A DNA stretch of 64,000 nt, taken from the NCBI GenBank assembly GCA_041746105.1, contig JBGTHP010000039.1, forward strand, positions 34,201 through 98,200, written 5' to 3'. The notes beneath the pieces are model-generated. The model was not told the origin of the DNA and searched no databases. It saw only the letters and a program-made list of their open reading frames with translations. This DNA comes from Acidimicrobiia bacterium (GTDB lineage: Bacteria; Actinomycetota; Acidimicrobiia; Spongiisociales; ZC4RG35). Below are positions 2,997-12,690 of the stretch, in pieces; within the stretch, counting starts at the first letter, position 1; each line of letters begins with the position of its first letter. The position numbers were made by a program, and so were the translations under genes.

Positions 2997-4439
2997 ATGG
3001 ACCTTCAGTCCTTCTTCAGAGATGCAGTAGCCGCACAAATCAAGGAACTCGAGGTCGCGATCGACCTTCCTCCCGATGCTCCCGAGGTTGCCAACGCCCG
3101 GCGCGTAGCGCATTCGCTCAAAGGTTCCGGCACCACGTATGGATACCCGGAGATATCGCAGGCGGCCGCCGTCACCGAACAAGCCTCAGATGCCAGTTTC
3201 AGCAAGTCGGTGGAGTCGCTGATCGAGGTGTTGACCAAAGCGATCGAAACGGACTCCAAGGTGGCGGTGCTCGTGGTCGACGACGATCCGGTTTTCGGCG
3301 AGATGCTGGTGGCCAAGTTGTCGAGTCCCCTCCTCAGGGTTGAACACGTCGGCTCGCGGGCCGAGGCCGAATCCCATCTGGACAATTCCCAGCCACAGGT
3401 GATCGTGCTGGACCTCTTCCTTCCCGACGGAGATGGCCGCGATCTCCTCGCCCAACTGGTCCAATCCCGTCCCGGTCTCACTGTCATCGCCACCAGTGCC
3501 ACGGACTCGAACGAGCTCCGGGATGCGGTCATGGCCGCCGGCGCCACTGCGTTTCTCACCAAACCGGTGAACATCAGGGCCCTCACCGATCTCGTCGAAC
3601 AGCTTCTCCGCCAGCGGGCAGAGGGACGCCACACCCGCGACCCGCTCATCGAGGTCTATGACGACCTTCGACGGACCGCTCCGACCGTGACCGTCGCATC
3701 AATCGTCCCCGAATTGCACGGGCCGGGCGGGCTCGATCGGCGCAACGACTCCAGTGTTCTCGACGACATGGTCAACGCCCTCGACGAACTGTTGCCGCCC
3801 GACATCGCAATCGGAAGGTGGTCGCCCACCGAACTGATCGGATTCACCGATGGAACGTCCCAAGAACTCCTCGAGACTCTCGATCGGGCTCGGCTCCGGC
3901 TGAGGAACCGGCTACAGCAGCCGGACGGTTCCGTCGCAACCTTCTCCGCCGGGGTTGCGCCCGGCAGCTCGAGCCTGCTCGATTCGTACGGACACGCCCG
4001 GGAGGCCGCCAGTGCGGCCGCGGCCGGCGGCGGCGACAGAGTTGTTCTCGCCAGCTCCACGGGCAGGGCCAACACCGTCCTCCTCGCGGAAGACGATCCA
4101 CTGACCGCGGCACTGGTGGTCCACCGTCTCGAGCGAGAAAGCCTCGACGTCACACACTGCACCGATGGCCTCACCGCCATCGAAATCGCATCCCAGCGAG
4201 AGTTCGGACTGATCATTCTCGACATCCAAATGCCGGGTCTCGACGGTTTCGGGGTGCTGGCGGAGCTCAGACAACGACCGGCCTATTTGGAGACTCCCAT
4301 CATCATCCTGACGGCGGTCGGCAGCGAACGTGATGTCGTGCGCGGTTTCGAACTCGGGTGTGACGACTATGTGCTCAAGCCTTTCAGCCCGGCCGAACTG
4401 ACGGCCAGGCTCAGGCGATTCACCAGGAAGGCCGTATGA
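2997..4439 (+). CDS. hybrid signalling protein: HPt - REC - degenerate GGDEF - REC
   Basis: 480 aa. N-terminal HPt motif AHSLKGSGTTYG. REC1 has VLVVDDDP...VLDLFLPDGDG...TKP. The middle domain aligns to GGDEF but carries RWSPTELIGF where RYGGEEF is expected, and keeps the C-terminal VATFSAGVA...GGGDRVV signature. REC2 has VLLAEDDP...ILDIQMPGLDG...KPF. Confidence 0.7.
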   Translation: MDLQSFFRDAVAAQIKELEVAIDLPPDAPEVANARRVAHSLKGSGTTYGYPEISQAAAVTEQASDASFSKSVESLIEVLTKAIETDSKVAVLVVDDDPVFGEMLVAKLSSPLLRVEHVGSRAEAESHLDNSQPQVIVLDLFLPDGDGRDLLAQLVQSRPGLTVIATSATDSNELRDAVMAAGATAFLTKPVNIRALTDLVEQLLRQRAEGRHTRDPLIEVYDDLRRTAPTVTVASIVPELHGPGGLDRRNDSSVLDDMVNALDELLPPDIAIGRWSPTELIGFTDGTSQELLETLDRARLRLRNRLQQPDGSVATFSAGVAPGSSSLLDSYGHAREAASAAAAGGGDRVVLASSTGRANTVLLAEDDPLTAALVVHRLERESLDVTHCTDGLTAIEIASQREFGLIILDIQMPGLDGFGVLAELRQRPAYLETPIIILTAVGSERDVVRGFELGCDDYVLKPFSPAELTARLRRFTRKAV

Positions 4440-4813
4440 AGTTCCTCTTCTGCGACGACGACCCCGTGATTCGGTACCTCCTCGAAATCCTTCTGGCAAA
4501 GCGGGGAGGCCACGAGGTAGTCCCGGTAGCCGACCCGTTCAAAGTTGTCGCCAATGCGATCGCCAGCGAACCCGACATGATCCTCCTCGATTACGTGATG
4601 CCTGGCATGACAGGACTGCAGGTCGTAGAGAGCCTGAGGGCGCACGATGAGACATCCAACACACCGGTTGTGTTTCTCACCGGCCGCTCCGACATCGCCG
4701 ATGGGCCGTCGCTCGATGCTTTGGGAGTCATGGGCGTCATCGAAAAACCCTTTGACACCGCCACCTTCATCGACCGCCTGATCGCCATGGCCGGTCGCGC
4801 CGCCACTCGCTGA
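4436..4813 (+). CDS. single-domain response regulator (CheY-like receiver)
   Basis: 125 aa. FLFCDDDP, LLDYVMPGMTG and EKPF motifs. Start overlaps the upstream stop (ATGA). Confidence 0.8.
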   Translation: MKFLFCDDDPVIRYLLEILLAKRGGHEVVPVADPFKVVANAIASEPDMILLDYVMPGMTGLQVVESLRAHDETSNTPVVFLTGRSDIADGPSLDALGVMGVIEKPFDTATFIDRLIAMAGRAATR

Positions 4814-4872: not shown

Positions 4873-5520
4873 GTGGCAGGGTCCGCCCTGGTTGAAGCCA
4901 AGACGAGTCGCAACGGGAGCTACCATGCCGGTTCTGCGCGTGCGAGCTCGCTCAGTCGCCACGACTATCGGACTCCGTCGAAATTCACGGCGGCATTCGT
5001 CAGGGAATTCGACGACTTCCACAAAGAATTCATGGCAGTGCTGTCACAGCGCTACACCCGCGAACTCAAATCGCAGATAACTATCGAGCACCTCAGCACC
5101 GAGCAGCTCACGTATGACGCCTACGTCCGCTCCATGCCCAATCCAAGCCTTCTCAACATCTTCGAGTTGGCCCCGCTTCCAGGTCGCGTCGTCTTCGAGA
5201 TGAGCCCCCAACTCGGGTTGGTTCTGGTCGATCGCCTCTTGGGTGGCCGCCCTGGCCGACCGGTCTCGCCGCGACCGCCGACCGTTCTCGAACAGACTCT
5301 GCTGACCACTCTCACCACCCACCCGATGGCAGCTTTCCAGGCCGCCCTCAGCCTGTTGGTCGACGTCGACCCACAGTTGGTACACACCGAGTTGAATCCT
5401 CAGTTCGCCCACGCCGCCATTGGCGGCCCTGGCACGTTTTCCGGGAGCCGTGTCATCTGTCTCCTCAACGCCCTCGTATTGGGTGCCGAAGAAGCCACGC
5501 ATCGCCATGAGCGCCTCTGA
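4873..5520 (+). CDS. fliM: flagellar motor switch protein FliM, N-terminal and middle (CheC-like) domains only. The C-terminal FliN/SpoA domain is missing.
   Basis: YDAYVRSMPNPSLLNIFELAPLPGRVVFEMSPQLGLVLVDRLLGG aligns with the E. coli FliM segment YHEFARNLPVPTNLNLIHLKPLRGTGLVVFSPSLVFIAVDNLFGG. The ORF stops at 5520 where a complete FliM would carry ~90 more residues. The 3' end overlaps the fliA region 4 on the opposite strand. Confidence 0.65.
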   Translation: MAGSALVEAKTSRNGSYHAGSARASSLSRHDYRTPSKFTAAFVREFDDFHKEFMAVLSQRYTRELKSQITIEHLSTEQLTYDAYVRSMPNPSLLNIFELAPLPGRVVFEMSPQLGLVLVDRLLGGRPGRPVSPRPPTVLEQTLLTTLTTHPMAAFQAALSLLVDVDPQLVHTELNPQFAHAAIGGPGTFSGSRVICLLNALVLGAEEATHRHERL

Positions 5521-6184
5521 ACGGATCTGGGAGACCCTGGCCTCGGTGAGTCCGAGATCGCCCGCAATGTCTTGAAGGAGTTCCCCTTCGAGGTAGTACC
5601 GAGAGATGACTTCGGCCTGGACCGCCGGCAGATTGCGAATCGCCTCTACCAATGTGCCTCGCATCTCGCGCTGCTCAAGGGCGAACTCCGCAAGAAAATC
5701 CGCACGCTGCTCTTCGACCCGGTCGACGAGAGGGGAATCCTCGCCCTCGCTCTGCTGGTCCAGATGAAGCAGGGTCGAAGTAGTTGCCTGAGCCTGACGC
5801 CTGCTCAGTTCGGCGATGCTGATTCCGAGGAAAGATGCAAAGTTCTTCTGCAACCGGGGTCTTGCCATGCTGCTCTTCCAGACCGGACTGGGCCTGCTGG
5901 ATGTCACGAATATTGCGCCGGACCGAACGGCTCGCCCAATCTCGGGTCCTCGTGCTGTCGATGATGGCGCCGCGAATACGAATTGCGGCGTGCCGTGCAA
6001 AAGGGATGCCGGACTCCGGATCAAAGCGACGGCTGGCCTCGACCAAGCCGAGAGCGCCTGCGTTCCACAACTCGGCTCGGTCCACGTGACGTGGATAACG
6101 GGCCGAGACCTCGGCGACAATGTGGCCGACGAGATCCATGTTGTCGGTCACAAGCTGATTCTGTTGGTGGCTTGTGAGGCTCAT
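5461..6184 (-). pseudogene. fliA: flagellar sigma factor FliA/WhiG (sigma-28 class). A 1-nt indel at ~5838-5840 splits regions 2 and 3-4, and there is no in-frame stop after region 4.
   Basis: Frame A (ORF 5675..6184) carries region 2, LVGHIVAEVSARYP...ELWNAGALGLVEASRRFDPESGIPFARHAAIRIRGAIIDSTRTRDW. The frame of ORF 5044..6120 carries regions 3-4, LGISIAELS...LPAVQAEVISRYYLEGELLQDIAGDLGLTEARVSQIRSEALMAMRG. The join occurs at GAAGAACTT-T-GCATC, where one extra T in a T3 run breaks EEL/ASFLGI. The region-4 frame then stays open to 5044, fully antisense to fliM. Confidence 0.7.
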
Positions 6185-6389
6185 GTTTCCCTACTCCTAC
6201 GATGCGGTTTCGATTCGCTGTGGTAATCGGGAAACCGGCGATCAATCCTTGAGGACCATTTAGAAATAGTCATTGGGTTGTCGGGGGAAACGCTTAACCA
6301 CCCTTTCGACGGGCCGACCACGCCGGCCGCGGTGCACGATCTACCAATTCACGACTTGACCGAAGCCGATTGGGGCGGACAGGAGAATC

Positions 6390-6833
6390 GTGACCATCAC
6401 ACACAATGCTCTCGCCGCACCCACGATCGACAAGCTGGTGGCTTTGCTCAACGGCGAAAGAAAAGTCCTCGAGCAACTGCTTTTCAGGATCACCGAATTC
6501 GAGTTGTTGCTGGCCGGCGCAGAACACCGGTTTGTCGCGAAGTCGCTCGACGAAATCGACCACGCCGAGAACGATCTCGCCATGTATGAGTTGAGCAGGG
6601 CGATTGTGGTCGAGACGCTGTTGCCACCCAACGTCCCACCAACGGCTACATCCCTCTTGGACATCTGTGCCGATCACCCCCAGTTGATCCGGGCGCTCGA
6701 TGACCTCAAAAGACTCGTTGCCGCCATCGAGCACGGACGCGAGCGGTGTCGCCGGCTCTCGCAGGAAAGAGTGGAAAAAGTCGGCACGGCCGAGCGCCGC
6801 CTCCAGCATCAGGGATTCGGCCCCTACGGCTGA
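6390..6833 (+). CDS. FlgN-like flagellar export chaperone family protein, paralog of the gene at 11193..11705
   Basis: 147 aa with GTG start and an AGGAGA Shine-Dalgarno. Shares the [12 protein letters not shown] motif (compare ERRLLEQLLFKL in the second copy). Helical and acidic. Divergently placed from fliA. Confidence 0.4.
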
Positions 6834-7161: not shown

Positions 7162-8301
7162 CTACATATCGGTTTCGGTGACAGTGGATGCGACTCGGGG
7201 GTCGATGCCGAAAATGTGGACGAGGTCGGCCGGTTCTCGGATCGGGCCCGTTGGAAGATGTCGCGAGTCCCAGGCGCATGCCGCCGCAATCAGCTGCGCC
7301 TCAGGAGTGCTGGCCCGGCCCATGTAGCCGGATTCGCGCAGTAGCGGACTGTCGGCGATGCCGCGTTGCCTCGGCAGAGTGGCCACCATCCTGACGAGTT
7401 CATCGTTGTGATTCACTCCGCTGCACCGGAACTCGGTACCGCCGAAAGTGAGCGAATGCAACCACGACGCGGCCTCAAGGCGCGACCGGTCCTTTTCCGG
7501 GAGGTGAATCGAGTGTTGACGCACGATCTCCACCATCCGTTCGGTGTGACCGGGGTTTCGCCCATCTCGCTCGGCCGAGATGATCCTGGCCTGCGCTTCG
7601 AGTTGGAGGGCGGCCCCGTGTTCCCGAAACCACGACCTGATCGCTTCTGTGTAGAGCGCTGCTGCCGCTATCGCTGGCAGGAGAGCCCACGAGGTGGTTG
7701 CGGGCACTGCCCATGCGAATGCAACCGCACCAGCGGATACGCCGATATCGCGGACCTGAGCCTTCCAGTAGTCGGCGCCTCCGGGCCAACGGTCATAGAG
7801 CAACCTCACGGAGATGGCGGCGAGCGGATAGTTGACCAGGACGCCGATCGCAGTCACTGCGGCCGCTCCCATCAGAACCAGCACCAGGTTTTTTGCGACC
7901 ACATCGACGGTCGGGGCGGCAGATATCAGTGCACCAACCACCAGCCATCGCGTCGACAGAATCCCATCGTTGAGAGCACAGAGCCTCCAGCCCTGCCGCC
8001 TGACCGCGGCCCACGCGATCAGTTTGGCCTGTATGACCAGCACGATCGGCGCCAACGGTCCGGCGACGAAACCGGTCGCCATCATGATCGGCGTGGAAGG
8101 GTCCAAAACAAATCGGTTCGGCTCCCTGACCATCAACAGCGACGACCCGACAGCCACCAACGTCAATCCGATGATTGCAAAAAACGTCGCAGGAGAAGGG
8201 ACCACAACCGAGATCGATCCGCCAATACCAGCGGCGACACCGCTGAATAACACGCCCAAAAGCGCGAACACAACGGGCCGCCGCTCAGTCGATGCGGTCA
8301 T
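7162..8301 (-). CDS. polytopic membrane protein (~7 TM) with a C-terminal degenerate HD/HD-GYP-like domain (7TMR-HD-like)
   Basis: 379 aa. Hydrophobic N-terminal ~270 aa. The C-terminal segment [35 protein letters not shown] resembles H-x-ERV...AALLHDIGK of HD domains but has HS instead of HD. Lies between fliW and csrA. Confidence 0.5.
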
Positions 8302-8517: not shown

Positions 8518-8934
8518 TCAACCGACGGGAATCTCTGCTCTGAGAGGGTATTCCTGGTTCGTGAGAACGATCTGGCGGCCCTTGCGAGTATGGGCGTTGA
8601 CTATGAACGGACCGAGCAAGTTCATGAAAGGGGTTGCGCCCTCAAACGAGATCGAACAGAACACCAAAGCATCTTCTGCGGCGGTGAGCTCCAGGCCCGC
8701 TTGTTCCAGGTCGGACAATTCCGGGGCGTAGTCCGGAAAAAACAGCCAGGGCACTGCAACGACCATGGCCACGTCGGGGTCGTCCATATCATGGAAGATC
8801 TGAAACTCGCCGGTCTCCACCAGATCGGTGAGTGCAAAATTGCGTGCATCAGGAAAGCCGGGAACGCCTTCGTCAAAAATCAGCACATCGCTCATTGGAG
8901 CGGCCAGGCTAGCGTCCGCTTCTGCTTCGATCAT
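8518..8934 (-). CDS. fliW: flagellar assembly factor FliW (CsrA antagonist)
   Basis: MIEAEAD...MSDVLIFDEGVPGFPDARNFAL...QIFHDMDDPDVAMVVAVPWLFFPDYAPELSDLEQAGLELTAAEDALVFCSISF...LTNQEYPLRAEI match FliW. The ATG at 8932-8934 overlaps the flgL stop. Confidence 0.85.
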   Translation of the reverse strand: MIEAEADASLAAPMSDVLIFDEGVPGFPDARNFALTDLVETGEFQIFHDMDDPDVAMVVAVPWLFFPDYAPELSDLEQAGLELTAAEDALVFCSISFEGATPFMNLLGPFIVNAHTRKGRQIVLTNQEYPLRAEIPVG

Positions 8935-9822
8935 CGCAGGAACTGGGCGAGGGAAGGCTGAAGTGATCGGGCGAGGGCCCCCTGCCCCGCCTGGTCGGCG
9001 GTTTCCTGCATCTGGAGTTCCATGATCGCCGCCGCGAGATCGGTGTCTTCTGTCTCTGACAACACAGTCCGCAGATTCACATCGTCGGCCTGGGCTCTGA
9101 ACAACGCCTGTTCGATGCGATTGAAGTGGCGCCAAGCTTGGCGCGCCCTACGAGCAGACGGTCGAGTCCGGTATGGAGATCTGCGATGGACTGGCCCAAA
9201 CCGGCCGAATCCTGGCTCTGGACCTGGGTCAGAACCGTCTCGAGAAGAGTGAACAGGTCCTGGCCGGCGTTGAACCCAAAAACCTCGCCTGCGGTGACGT
9301 TGACCTGGACCTTCTCGTTTTCGCCGATTCGCCCGGTCACCGCACCCGCGTCGCCTTGATAGGTCCAGGTACCGGCAACTTTCGCCACCGCATCACCAGA
9401 ACTGAAGCCTCCGAACAGTGGCCGGCCGCCGGTCTTGGCGTTTGCCATCGACGTGATGGAACTGAGGCGTTCCCCGACCTCGGCTGCGATGGCGATGGCG
9501 CCGTCGGGTCCACTTGTGCCGTTGCGCGCAGAGATCACCAACTCGCGTACTCGCTGGATTGCGTCACCGATGCTTCCGAGACGGGCGTCGGCGAGTTCGG
9601 CCCATTGGCGTCCGTCATCCGCGTTCTTTTTTGCCTGGGCATTGGCGGCGAGAGCGGTACGATCCGGAGCGAGCGGCTCATGCCTGCCGGGTCATCTGAG
9701 GCGACTCTGATCCTTTTGCCGGTAGTCAGATCGGTTTGGGCGCGCTCGAAGTCGTTCAGCCGATCGTTCATCCGGCGCACACCGAGATCGGTCATCATTC
9801 GATTGGTGATTCGGTTGGTCAT
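8931..9822 (-). pseudogene. flgL: flagellar hook-associated protein 3 FlgL, disrupted by two frameshifts at ~9657-9664 and ~9118-9126
   Basis: The N-terminus MTNRITNRMMTDLGVRRMNDRLNDFERAQTDLTTGKRIRVASDDPAG (ORF 9535..9822) shifts by -1 into the frame holding TALAANAQAKKNADDGRQWAELADARLGSIGDAIQRVRELVISARNGTSGPDGAIAIAAEV...RPLFGG (ORF 9077..9541). After ...VGRAKLGATS a second shift is needed to reach the conserved C-terminus NRIEQALFRAQADDVNLRTVLSETEDTDLAAAIMELQMQETADQAGQGALARSLQPSLAQFLR, which ends at the stop at 8931. Confidence 0.75.
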
Positions 9823-9827
9823 TCAGA

Positions 9828-11193
9828 TCACCTTCCCACTATCCCTGTGCGATTGATCAGGACATCCAGCATCTGGTCGACGGTTGTTATCACGCGGCCC
9901 GCAGACTCGTACATCCGCTGGTATTCCATGAGCGAGACCATCTCTTCGTCGACCGATACCCCATGGACCGACATGCGTGACCTTTCAGCGGCCTCGGCCA
10001 GACCCTGATGGGTGGCCGATGCCATGAGCAACGACGAAACGTCGCGCCCGAGGCCGGTGACGATCGATGAGAAGAAGTCGGGAAGCGACGTTGTCCCACC
10101 GGAGGCCGAAAGGCTGTTCCTGAGGTCCGCGAGTTGGGCTGCGATTCCGCCGTCAAAGTCGGGAAATGGTGGCCCCGCAGACGTGGCGGCAGCCAATTGC
10201 GCCGGATCGGTGATGGCGACGGTCATCGTCTTCGCCGGCGAGCCAGGATTGAAGGAGAACAATGGACCCCCCGGTCCGCCGGTGTGGTAGCCGCCGGCAT
10301 GGATGCCGTTCATGGCGTTGGCGAGATCCACCACGAAGGAATCCAACTTGGAGGTGAGATTGGGGAGATCGGTTGTGAAAGACTGCTGCAGTCCGCGTAG
10401 TTCGCCGCCCGGTGTCACGGCGATGCCGGATGGATGCAGGATCTGACCGGTGGACGGATCAGCGGTCAACGCCCGAGAACTCGAGCCTGAAACCAACGAG
10501 ATTCCGCCCAACAAGACCTGGACTCCGCCGAACTCGTCTCGGATCGTTCGAACTCCGATGATCGACGAAAGACGGTCCACCAACATGTCGCGCTGATCCA
10601 TCAGGTCGTTAGGTGTGCCGCGGGCGGCGCCGCTCTCGAGAATGGCACCGTTCAGATTGGCGACCTCCGCCAAGAGCTTGTTGACGTCGTCGACCTTGCC
10701 CAGGATCGAACTCTTGACCTCGGTCCGCAACGCGTCGAGTTCGCCGGCAACCTGTTGAATTCGGGAAGCCACGGCGTTGAGTTGACCGATTACACCCATC
10801 CGGGTGGCGCTGTCGTTTGGTGACAAGCTCAGTTCCTCGAACGAATTCGAAGAGTCGGTTGACTTCGACCAGGATTCCCCGGTCGGGTTCACCGAGGGCG
10901 GCCTCGGCCCTCGTGAGGAAGTTCGCCCTGATTCCGGTCTCTGATGCCCCCGAAATCGAAGCTCTCACCCTGGAATCGAGAAACTGGTCCCTCGAGCGAG
11001 AAATGCCAACAACATCGACGCCGGTGCCCACCTGACCAGAAGGCGTACTCCGGGGCATGCGGGCTCGAAGATCGACTCGCTGCCTGGTGTATCCATCGGT
11101 CGATGCGTTCGAGATGTTGTGCGAAGTTGTATCGAGCCCACGTTGCGCGGCCCGCAGACCGCTCAAAGCCACGTGTAGTGCTGTGAAATCCAT
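9828..11193 (-). pseudogene. flgK: flagellar hook-associated protein 1 FlgK, disrupted by a frameshift in the CCCC run at 10877-10880
   Basis: N-terminal frame (ORF 10609..11193) is MDFTALHVALSGLRAAQRGLDTTSHNISNASTDGYTRQRVD...EAALGEPDRG. C-terminal frame (ORF 9828..10892) is ESWSKSTDSSNSFEEL...EMVSLMEYQRMYESAGRVITTVDQMLDVLINRTG. The frames join only if one G is restored in CGGGG-GAATCC. Confidence 0.75.
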
Positions 11194-11705
11194 CAGAACA
11201 CCTCATCGATCTTGGTCGGACCTGAATAGACACTCTCGTGCCGGGTGCCGCGAGCGTCATAGACCTCGATCGGGTGCTGGCCGAGAAGCACGCCGAGAGA
11301 CTCTGCGACGTTTCCGAGGGCCAAAGACGCCAGCCTGCGGTTGTCAAGGGTCGCGTGTTCGATCTCGGTGGTTAGGCGCTGGAACTGGTCACGGTGGTCT
11401 TCGAACATGGTTCGGTACGGCTCCGGCGCCCACGACGACAAAAACCCGAGGGTGACCTTGGCCGGAGGCTGACCGATGGCGTCGGCGAGAGCATTGGCTG
11501 CAGAGCCGCGGTGAGCCTCGCCTGCACGAATCCTGGCGATGGCCGAGTCGACCTCACTCATGGCCTGGGGGACAAAACGTGCCTCGTCGGCTGCCAGCAC
11601 GAGACGCGCCGCGACCAACTTGAACAGGAGCTGTTCGAGTAGACGTCGCTCGGCCGAAAGGGTGTCGGCCAGCTCAACCAACTGGCGCCGATTCGGAATG
11701 CTCAT
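11193..11705 (-). CDS. flgN: FlgN-like flagellar chaperone, placed upstream of flgK as in flgN-flgK-flgL operons
   Basis: MSIPNRRQLVELADTLSAERRLLEQLLFKLVAARLVLAADEARF. Position and shared motif with 6390..6833. The ORF extends to 11816, but the ATG at 11705 is preferred. Confidence 0.5.
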   Translation of the reverse strand: MSIPNRRQLVELADTLSAERRLLEQLLFKLVAARLVLAADEARFVPQAMSEVDSAIARIRAGEAHRGSAANALADAIGQPPAKVTLGFLSSWAPEPYRTMFEDHRDQFQRLTTEIEHATLDNRRLASLALGNVAESLGVLLGQHPIEVYDARGTRHESVYSGPTKIDEVF

Positions 11706-11796
11706 AGCAATGCCTGTCGACCACCCGCGCCGGGGCAAAAGGTGTCGTTTTCGAAGGGCGGTCAGGGCACCGTTGTCCACTACCGTGCTGTCCACA

Positions 11797-12351
11797 ATGG
11801 ACATGGACGAGCTCAAGCAGAAACTCGAAGAAGCCGAGACCTCGCTGGCTCAACTCCGGCTCGTCATGGACGGGGTCGGCACCGTCGACCTGTCTACCGG
11901 AATCAACAATCGCAACGGGGTGCTGGAAGCAATCGAGCGCGGGCGCCGGTGGATGAATCGACGCGGTGACATGTTCGGCGTCATCGTGGTCCGCTTCATG
12001 AACATGCCGGTCATCGATCTCGACATCCCCGACCATGTTGAGTTGGTCAAACACCTTGCCGCCACAATTGGCGCAGGCGTCAGGGAAGTCGACGACGTGG
12101 GCCGGCTCGACGACATGTCGTTCGCGATTGTGCTGGCCGACGTCAAACCCGGGGCAATCAGCGTGGTGGTGGATCGTGTCATGGCACAGATCGAAGCCTC
12201 CGGCGAAACCCTTGAGCGCGCCGGCGGGGTGTTCCGGCTGGCAGCAATCGAGTTGCTCAGCAGCAGCCACTCCTCTGATGTGATCCTCGATGCCACCGAG
12301 CGCCTGCTGGCCAAGTCCGCCGACAACGGTTGGGCCGGCGCCCAGCTCTGA
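11797..12351 (+). CDS. degenerate GGDEF-domain protein (DDMSF replaces GGDEF) with a short N-terminal coiled coil
   Basis: TGINNRNGVLEAIERG...GVIVVRFMNMPVIDLDIPDHVELVKHLAATIGAGVREVDDVGRLDDMSFAIVLADV...ERAGGVFRLAAIELLSSSHSSDVILDATERLLAKSADNGWAG aligns along a full GGDEF fold. The active-site GG(D/E)EF reads DDMSF. Confidence 0.6.
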   Translation: MDMDELKQKLEEAETSLAQLRLVMDGVGTVDLSTGINNRNGVLEAIERGRRWMNRRGDMFGVIVVRFMNMPVIDLDIPDHVELVKHLAATIGAGVREVDDVGRLDDMSFAIVLADVKPGAISVVVDRVMAQIEASGETLERAGGVFRLAAIELLSSSHSSDVILDATERLLAKSADNGWAGAQL

Positions 12352-12429: not shown

Positions 12430-12690
12430 ATGATCCGGCTGCACCGCATTCGCGGCGAAGAGATGTTTCTCAATGCCGACCTCATCGAATCGATGGAGGT
12501 CACTCCCGACACCGTGCTCACGCTCATCGATGGGCGGAAAATGGTGATCGCCGATGACCCCAATGTCGTTGTCGATGAGATCGCGCGGTTCAGGGCTCGA
12601 GTTTTGTGCGCCGCAGATGAGATGCGCAGCGGCGGCGGGACGGCCGCCGAAGTGGTGCGTTTGGTCCGGTCGGAACCCGAGTCGGACTAG
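12430..12690 (+). CDS. flbD: flagellar protein FlbD
   Basis: MIRLHRIRGEEMFLNADLIESMEVTPDTVLTLIDGRKMVIADDPNVVVDEI matches the FlbD consensus MIKLTRLNGSEFYLNPDLIEFIEATPDTVITL.NGKK. Start taken at the internal ATG at 12430. Confidence 0.7.
   Translation: MIRLHRIRGEEMFLNADLIESMEVTPDTVLTLIDGRKMVIADDPNVVVDEIARFRARVLCAADEMRSGGGTAAEVVRLVRSEPESD

Follow-up and report, generated by a model that had tools for sequence, protein, structure and literature searches.

The stretch of DNA analysed here, referred to as the window, comprises 64,000 nucleotides from the genome of an Acidimicrobiia bacterium (assembly GCA_041746105.1, contig JBGTHP010000039.1, positions 34,201 to 98,200). Between two flagellar genes of the window lies an intact open reading frame (ORF) on the plus strand, at positions 11797..12351, that encodes a stand-alone protein of 184 residues, here called X. 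According to its close homologs, AlphaFold, Foldseek and hhalign, X consists of a stalk helix and a degenerate GGDEF domain. We propose, with a probability of about 0.6, that X is a dimeric receptor that would bind cyclic di-GMP (c-di-GMP) at the inhibitory site (I-site) of its GGDEF domain and control a flagellar process. Residue conservation and synteny are the grounds from which we infer both the receptor function and the link to motility. On these grounds X is probably a previously undescribed sensor linking c-di-GMP to swimming in Acidimicrobiia.

The evidence begins with the loss of the active site, which is assessed within two sets of proteins. The X family is sampled by 112 members (150-260 residues, score of at least 138 bits with the family hidden Markov model, HMM), with residues counted per position of the window protein. 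The nearest outgroup, 109 ordinary multi-domain GGDEF proteins, was aligned to the same family HMM. In X the signature GG(D/E)EF is replaced by DDMSF (D105-D106-M107-S108-F109; 12109..12123, plus strand), which aligns to G368-G369-E370-E371-F372 of PleD with hhalign as well as with hmmalign together with the outgroup proteins; the PleD sequence and its residue numbering were checked against the PDB. None of the 112 relatives has GG[DE]EF, and 81 different five-residue strings are found at the motif. The outgroup shows G (97 of 109), G (102), D or E (104), E (103) and F (108) at the same columns. The metal-binding D327 of PleD, an aspartate in 103 of the outgroup proteins, corresponds to R66 of X, and the family has R in 59, S in 11 and E in 8 members, besides others. 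The positions of K332 (K in 97 outgroup proteins), N335 (N in 104) and D344 (D in 99) are occupied by P71, D74 and V81, respectively, and all three are variable in the family; S175 and N178 stand at the positions of K442 and R446 according to hhalign. The GTP-binding positions (N335, D344, K332, D327, K442 and R446 in PleD) are not conserved in the X family. By the criterion of these residues the active site of X is catalytically dead, as had been claimed in an earlier reading made from the letters alone (the sequence-only reading). Having lost the GG(D/E)EF loop, the metal-binding aspartate and the guanine- and phosphate-binding residues, X is predicted to be incapable of c-di-GMP synthesis. 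DDMSF is not a local sequencing error, since no relative is canonical and since the ratio of nonsynonymous to synonymous substitution rates (dN/dS) of X against its closest relative is 0.11. The value is comparable to those of flbD, flgN and lysS; X evolves under purifying selection.

The I-site is kept in the same proteins. The primary motif R96-E-V-D99 (RxxD; 12082..12093, plus strand) lies five residues before DDMSF. Both charged residues, R96 (PleD R359, WspR R242) and D99 (PleD D362, WspR D245), are conserved in 112 of 112 members, which bears out an RxxD I-site as envisaged in the sequence-only reading. R127 (12175..12177, plus strand) maps to PleD R390, the third primary I-site residue, by hhalign and is conserved in 107 of the 112. 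The secondary I-site on helix alpha1 (11950..11961, plus strand) was located by HMM alignment to WspR (PDB 3bre) and comprises W52, in the column of PleD R313, and R55, in the column of WspR R198. R55 is conserved in 110 of the 112 members; at position 52, 75 of the 112 have R and 35 have W. The mapping of the site onto R242, D245 and R198 of WspR is ungapped. Only five columns are invariant in an alignment of 48 sequences (G41, R55, R96, D99 and R127), and four of them are I-site residues; the chance that four named columns out of 184, drawn at random, fall among the five is about 1e-7. In WspR, R242 together with R198 of the neighbouring GGDEF domain holds an intercalated c-di-GMP dimer, and the mutants R242A and R198A purify free of c-di-GMP (PMC2270323). 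X shares with cyclases of the WspR, PleD, DgcB and SiaD type the fold, the layout of stalk plus GGDEF domain and the RxxD five residues before the signature, and with WspR and PleD in particular the secondary and the third arginine. It differs from all of them by the loss of every active-site determinant and has no sensory N-terminal domain. Since the ordinary outgroup proteins likewise carry the I-site residues, the simplest history is that X descends from an I-site-bearing cyclase; judged by these alignments, the ancestor was most likely of the WspR/PleD type and selectively lost catalysis.

The assignment of X to the GGDEF fold had also been made in the sequence-only reading, together with a coiled-coil N-terminus, and both proposals are borne out, with one qualification that concerns the profile search. 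X alone matches PF00990 with 21.7 bits (E 1.8e-4), where the gathering score is 23.8, and TIGR00254 with 19.6 bits, where the cut-off is 37.4; both values are sub-threshold. Because this single-sequence match is marginal, the homology rests on the family profile, on relatives that pass the Pfam threshold and on the predicted fold. A profile built from 18 close homologs matches solved GGDEF domains (3ezu with 3.9e-5, as well as 3ign, 5llw and WspR 3bre), and hhalign places a profile made from 48 diverse relatives on the GGDEF domain of PleD with a probability of 97.5%. PF00990 is matched at E<=0.01 by 42 of these 48 relatives, the best with 4e-15. The AlphaFold2 model of X, calculated on the homolog alignment, has a mean predicted local distance difference test (pLDDT) of 87.2; in it a long helix at the N-terminus (residues 3-27) precedes the alpha/beta core of the GGDEF domain. 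In a Foldseek search against the PDB all of the 50 best matches listed are GGDEF domains with probability 1.0. SiaD (7e6g) ranks highest, PleD is among the matches, and other best ones are constructs of a stalk or coiled coil plus GGDEF domain, namely GCN4-WspR (3i5c), WspR (3bre) and DgcB (6ttr). The sequence identity to these solved cyclases is 12-20%. On the combined strength of profiles and model we conclude that X has a GGDEF fold, with the dead domain predicted to span residues 29-184 (11881..12348, plus strand; model, Foldseek, hhalign). The stalk (residues 3-27; 11803..11877, plus strand) follows from the model and from a heptad pattern with 3-4 spacing, whose a and d positions are L6, L10, A13, L17, L20, M24 and V27. 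Across the family Leu prevails (79-91%) at the conserved positions 6, 10, 20 and 24, and positions 13, 17 and 27 are variable and mostly hydrophobic. The conserved heptads fit a predicted dimerising stalk.

X lies between flgN and flbD, as the earlier reading stated. The gene starts with ATG at 11797 and ends with TGA at 12349-12351. The annotated form in the public record (P0001) has 213 residues and starts at 11710, 87 nt further upstream. This is probably an over-extended gene call, as a start at 11710 would leave just 4 bp to the start of flgN at 11705. We keep 11797 because nine close homologs have 184 residues and begin with MD[IML][DE], and because likeness to the ortholog of locus L005 sets in exactly at M1; the 18 close homologs mostly have 184-191 residues. 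On the minus strand flgN (11193..11705; PF05130, 39 bits) is the first gene of a divergent flgN-flgK-flgL-fliW-(7TM)-csrA block, where 7TM denotes an ORF with several transmembrane (TM) segments, and is separated from X by an intergenic region of 91 bp (11706..11796). On the plus strand flbD (SwrD family; 12433..12690; PF06289, 72 bits) follows 81 bp downstream of X and in the same reading frame. Between X and flbD no terminator-like site was found, the single site detected being on the minus strand inside X, and the two genes are likely co-transcribed. Neither a sigma-70-like consensus in the intergenic region nor a convincing sigma-28-type motif common to the loci was found. The three closest loci (the window, L005 and L006) have in common a CACTACCGT motif located 10-15 nt upstream of the ATG (11770-11790 in the window) and have no Shine-Dalgarno sequence in front of X; more distant members (L014-L017) instead carry a strong GAGGAGG. 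The motif may be a -10-like element of a short-leader transcript. Among Rfam models the window matches only a tRNA and no c-di-GMP riboswitch, and a PADLOC scan gave no match.

The family is small and well delimited. A word-indexed search of 5.8 billion proteins returned just 19 close relatives of X; 1.84 billion cluster representatives, searched exhaustively with HMMER, yielded 77 at E<1e-10, nearly all of them stand-alone proteins of 170-230 residues. Ordinary multi-domain GGDEF proteins turn up only past these 77. With a broader profile the X family scores at least 169 bits and all other proteins score at most 85 bits. No multi-domain fusions with an X-type domain were found; the long proteins in which two stretches matched, P0115, P0120, P0111 and P0106, are ordinary tandem-GGDEF proteins and give no hint of a partner. 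All named sources of relatives are uncultured metagenome-assembled genomes, labelled Acidimicrobiia, Acidimicrobiales or Ca. Poriferisodalaceae, the rest Actinomycetota, Actinomycetia or "uncultured bacterium". The proteins are annotated generically ("GGDEF domain-containing protein", "PleD family response regulator") or not at all.

X is located among flagellar genes in all of 20 distinct loci, which belong to Acidimicrobiia or Acidimicrobiales wherever they are classified that far. It is directly followed by flbD in 11 of the 20, including the window, and by flgE and then flbD in three (L017, L021, L022), X typically being the first gene of these arrangements. Three further loci are rearranged: flbD is inverted in L013, it lies 3 kb upstream in L014, and L007 is a short contig. 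The flgN-flgK-flgL-fliW-csrA block is divergent from X in 17 loci. Genes for HD/HD_5 (HD-GYP-type, PF13487) proteins in L015, L016 and L017, and for two HDOD proteins in L002, adjoin the FliA-like sigma gene.

For the proposed receptor we envisage a mechanism modelled on the product-inhibited forms of WspR, PleD and DgcB. Soluble X would form a parallel dimer via its N-terminal stalk helix, and an intercalated c-di-GMP dimer would bridge R96, D99 and R127 of one GGDEF domain and R55 and W52 of the other. This cross-link would lock both domains in a fixed arrangement, such that an altered surface is offered to a partner. A flagellar process is the most likely output because the gene is embedded in flagellar clusters. 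It could be the power of motor and stator, exerted together with FlbD/SwrD, or it could be late flagellar assembly or gene expression. The latter is suggested because X shares its divergent region with flgN-flgK-flgL-fliW-csrA and because a FliA-like sigma gene is nearby; both outputs are plausible. SwrD is reported to raise flagellar torque in B. subtilis and to form hexameric rings, with MotA as a predicted, unvalidated partner (PMC13232269). More tentatively, and with doubts that outweigh our confidence, X might supply the c-di-GMP input that the actinobacterial flagellum is missing, as a c-di-GMP-cross-linked switch by which FlbD/SwrD, or the hook and stator machinery encoded alongside, would be engaged or released and motor power or late assembly thereby tuned.

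Degenerate GGDEF domains that act as I-site receptors constitute a known class, with PelD of P. aeruginosa, PopA of Caulobacter, CdgA of Bdellovibrio, YdaK of B. subtilis, PssE of Listeria and SgmT of Myxococcus. Exopolysaccharide, proteolysis, predation or matrix are under the control of these proteins, whose further modules are of the TM, GAF, receiver (REC) or kinase type. Such receptors are described for PelD (PMC2170427), SgmT (PMC3509222), CdgA (PMC3271064), YdaK (PMC7064775) and PssE (PMC4125290). X follows the same logic, a dead cyclase domain whose retained RxxD serves (in X by prediction) as the receptor site. It differs as a minimal soluble protein of stalk plus GGDEF domain inside the flagellar clusters of Acidimicrobiia, and no specific sequence relationship to the six proteins was found, the profile scores dropping from 169 to 85 bits at the border of the family. 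Judged by its residues X is a new, uncharacterised member of this class. A GGDEF protein tied to flagella is CbrR of C. jejuni, a negative regulator of motility and of flagellin expression whose autoinhibitory site binds c-di-GMP (PMC8779298). The predicted site of X is of the same kind. Unlike X, CbrR has the architecture REC-REC-GGDEF with two receiver domains and binds GTP too, and X shows only a negligible likeness to it (NCBIfam 16.9 bits, the cut-off being 600). By role, X may also be analogous to small c-di-GMP receptors that act on the motor or on motility, namely the PilZ brakes and clutches (YcgR, MotI/DgrA, FlgZ) and ComFB of B. subtilis, the latter a c-di-GMP receptor inhibiting swarming and swimming (bioRxiv 10.1101/2025.07.11.664319). 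Their folds are unrelated to that of X, which has neither a PilZ nor a ComFB domain.

For Proteobacteria and Firmicutes there is a good understanding of how c-di-GMP controls flagella (PilZ brakes, FleQ, Cle proteins, ComFB). A survey of actinobacterial flagella from 2023 describes the c-di-GMP work of the phylum as confined to the non-motile Streptomyces and Mycobacterium; it counts GGDEF enzymes and names no receptor, and no c-di-GMP receptor is known for flagellated Actinomycetota (PMC10746217). Our literature searches for a degenerate GGDEF protein with FlbD, or for GGDEF, RxxD and a flagellar gene cluster, found nothing. If X does supply the c-di-GMP input to the actinobacterial flagellum, it would be the first effector with a GGDEF fold to be integral to a flagellar operon, and it would offer a first functional handle on FlbD/SwrD, a protein still lacking a known partner (PMC13232269). 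The family, clade-restricted, fixed inside flagellar clusters and cleanly separated from other GGDEF proteins, makes by its pattern of conservation a specific prediction, namely that the I-site binds c-di-GMP and that catalysis is absent. Its frequent pairing with flbD/swrD provides a candidate partner for a motility protein of unresolved mechanism. Part of the family, including the window protein, escapes Pfam annotation and is shown as hypothetical protein; the family is therefore invisible to surveys that count GGDEF domains.

Several points weigh against a flagellar c-di-GMP receptor. The predicted binding of c-di-GMP is deduced from residues, and X contains no DNA-binding or other output domain. 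The 64-kb window encodes no active diguanylate cyclase, such that production of c-di-GMP by the organism is assumed. The adjacency of X and flbD is not universal: besides the inversion in L013, X stands alone in three of the 20 loci (L015, L016, L020), where it is convergent with fliH-fliG-fliF. The genes fliA, flgK and flgL are frameshifted in the window genome, and the flagellar system that X would regulate may hence be defective there. Finally, the I-site residues could in principle be kept for structural reasons or for protein contacts. Indeed, some degenerate GGDEF domains work purely by protein contacts, and X might be an adaptor or scaffold of the flagellum that is independent of nucleotides, with the conserved Arg and Asp serving folding or an interface. 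The predicted status of c-di-GMP binding leaves room for such a role, and an Arg-rich helix in the narrow clade of X (R48-x-R50-R51-W52-M53-x-R55-R56) could be an interaction surface. We consider it unlikely, as R96, D99, R127 and R55 coincide exactly with the c-di-GMP contacts of WspR and PleD, an agreement hardly expected by chance, and as the remaining surface, the former active site included, varies freely.

A further alternative accepts a ligand of a different kind, e.g., guanosine tetra- or pentaphosphate ((p)ppGpp), GTP, cyclic GMP-AMP or cyclic di-AMP, sensed at the I-site or at the remnant of the active site. Degenerate GGDEF domains that bind GTP exist, PdeA of C. crescentus being an example, and the PDB entries 9g85 and 9g86 show PleD with c-di-GMP plus ppGpp or pppGpp. 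We give this alternative little weight: the conserved set of X is the c-di-GMP I-site and not the GTP-binding positions, and the presence of HD-GYP-type genes in related clusters speaks for c-di-GMP. Similarly small is the chance that X, in this genome, is an intact but non-functional relic of a decaying flagellar regulon or is re-used outside flagella, which would not exclude a receptor function in the family. Decay is suggested by the frameshifts in the late flagellar genes next to intact housekeeping ORFs and by the multi-TM ORF inserted between fliW and csrA. Yet X, flbD, flgN, fliW and csrA are intact, dN/dS amounts to 0.05-0.11, the C-terminal part of flgK included, so that decay is either recent or the frameshifts are assembly errors, and flgK and flgL are intact in the closest relative, L018. 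It is extremely improbable, going by the sequence of the motif, that X, with an unorthodox signature, still acts as a diguanylate cyclase. Activity is possible with rare non-canonical motifs, AGDEF among them (PMC3974145). DDMSF, however, has neither of the glycines and lacks the catalytic Glu, the metal-binding Asp is an Arg, the guanine-binding Asn and Asp are lost, and the motif is not constrained across the family.

Two other types of effector were considered for X and are not supported by its motifs. RsiG, the anti-sigma partner of the FliA-like WhiG in Actinomycetota, binds c-di-GMP by a coiled-coil motif E(x3)S(x2)R(x3)Q(x3)D. The X helix 3-27, DMDELKQKLEEAETSLAQLRLVMDG, has E12 and S16, but in the places of R, Q and D it carries Q19, V23 and V27, and the motif is likewise unmatched by the columns of the X family. 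For a flagellar effector of the PilZ type (YcgR/MotI; motifs RxxxR and D/NxSxxG), no PilZ domain is found among the Pfam and NCBIfam matches of X at E<=1.

The sequence-only reading had assigned three dead c-di-GMP-type domains to this block, of which X is borne out and the two others are at most weakly verifiable; the family HMM of X detects no other GGDEF-like ORF in the 64-kb window. One of the two is the middle part, of about 150 residues, of an HPt-REC-?-REC protein (2997..4439, plus strand), which is followed by a single-domain CheY-like receiver (4436..4813, plus strand). This middle part has an 18-bit, sub-threshold Pfam match to a GdpP-type GGDEF domain and aligns to the X family with an hhalign probability of 0.2%. 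A homolog search with it returned no sequences, a PDB search gave no relevant match, and a single-sequence model has a pLDDT of about 30. By eye, "IGRWSPTELIGF ... FSAGVA ... GGGDRV" could fit the C-terminal half of a GGDEF domain, which we regard as only a lead. The pair of HPt-REC-?-REC protein and CheY-like receiver recurs in L001 beside the sigma gene and X. The other is the multi-TM (7TM) ORF of 379 residues (7162..8301, minus strand), which is inserted between fliW and csrA, is absent there in related clusters and has no Pfam or PDB match. A weak pairwise match (E 2e-4) links its C-terminal part to the HD/HD_5 protein of L017, and none was obtained with that of L016. In the alignment with L017, "LHDVGK" reads "LHSLTF" (HD to HS), and the GYP region reads LPTG. 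A degenerate HD-GYP domain is plausible from this alignment, yet weakly supported. Given the HD-GYP-type and HDOD proteins beside the FliA-like sigma gene in related clusters, c-di-GMP-related domains appear to be a recurrent trait of the flagellar loci of Acidimicrobiia.

The frameshifts were recognised by comparison with the intact orthologs in L005, L002 and L018, and all affected genes are on the minus strand. The FliA/WhiG-like sigma gene (5422-6190) has one near 5831-5841, flgL (8934-9822) has two, near 9664 and 9126, and flgK (9831-11202) has one near 10846. None of the sites is a long homopolymer, and X, flbD, flgN, fliW, csrA and all large housekeeping ORFs are without frameshift. The frameshifts may reflect either a recent pseudogenisation of late flagellar genes or a local assembly error. 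They leave the identity of X unchanged and call for caution against assuming a working flagellum in this genome.

Two further ORFs in this part of the window are related to flagellar genes. An ORF of 215 residues (4873..5520, plus strand) strongly matches the FliM family (E 9e-25, covering profile positions 2-152 of 192). It lacks the FliN-like C-terminal part and overlaps the convergent sigma gene, 3' end on 3' end. It may be a truncated FliM or a stand-alone FliM-middle-domain protein. The second is a divergent FlgN-like ORF adjoining csrA (6390..6833, plus strand; PF05130, 26.5 bits, sub-threshold), in addition to the flgN next to X. It is conserved in relatives, namely in L002 (6003-6458), L017 (3940-4437), L021 (716-1261) and L020 (685-1176).

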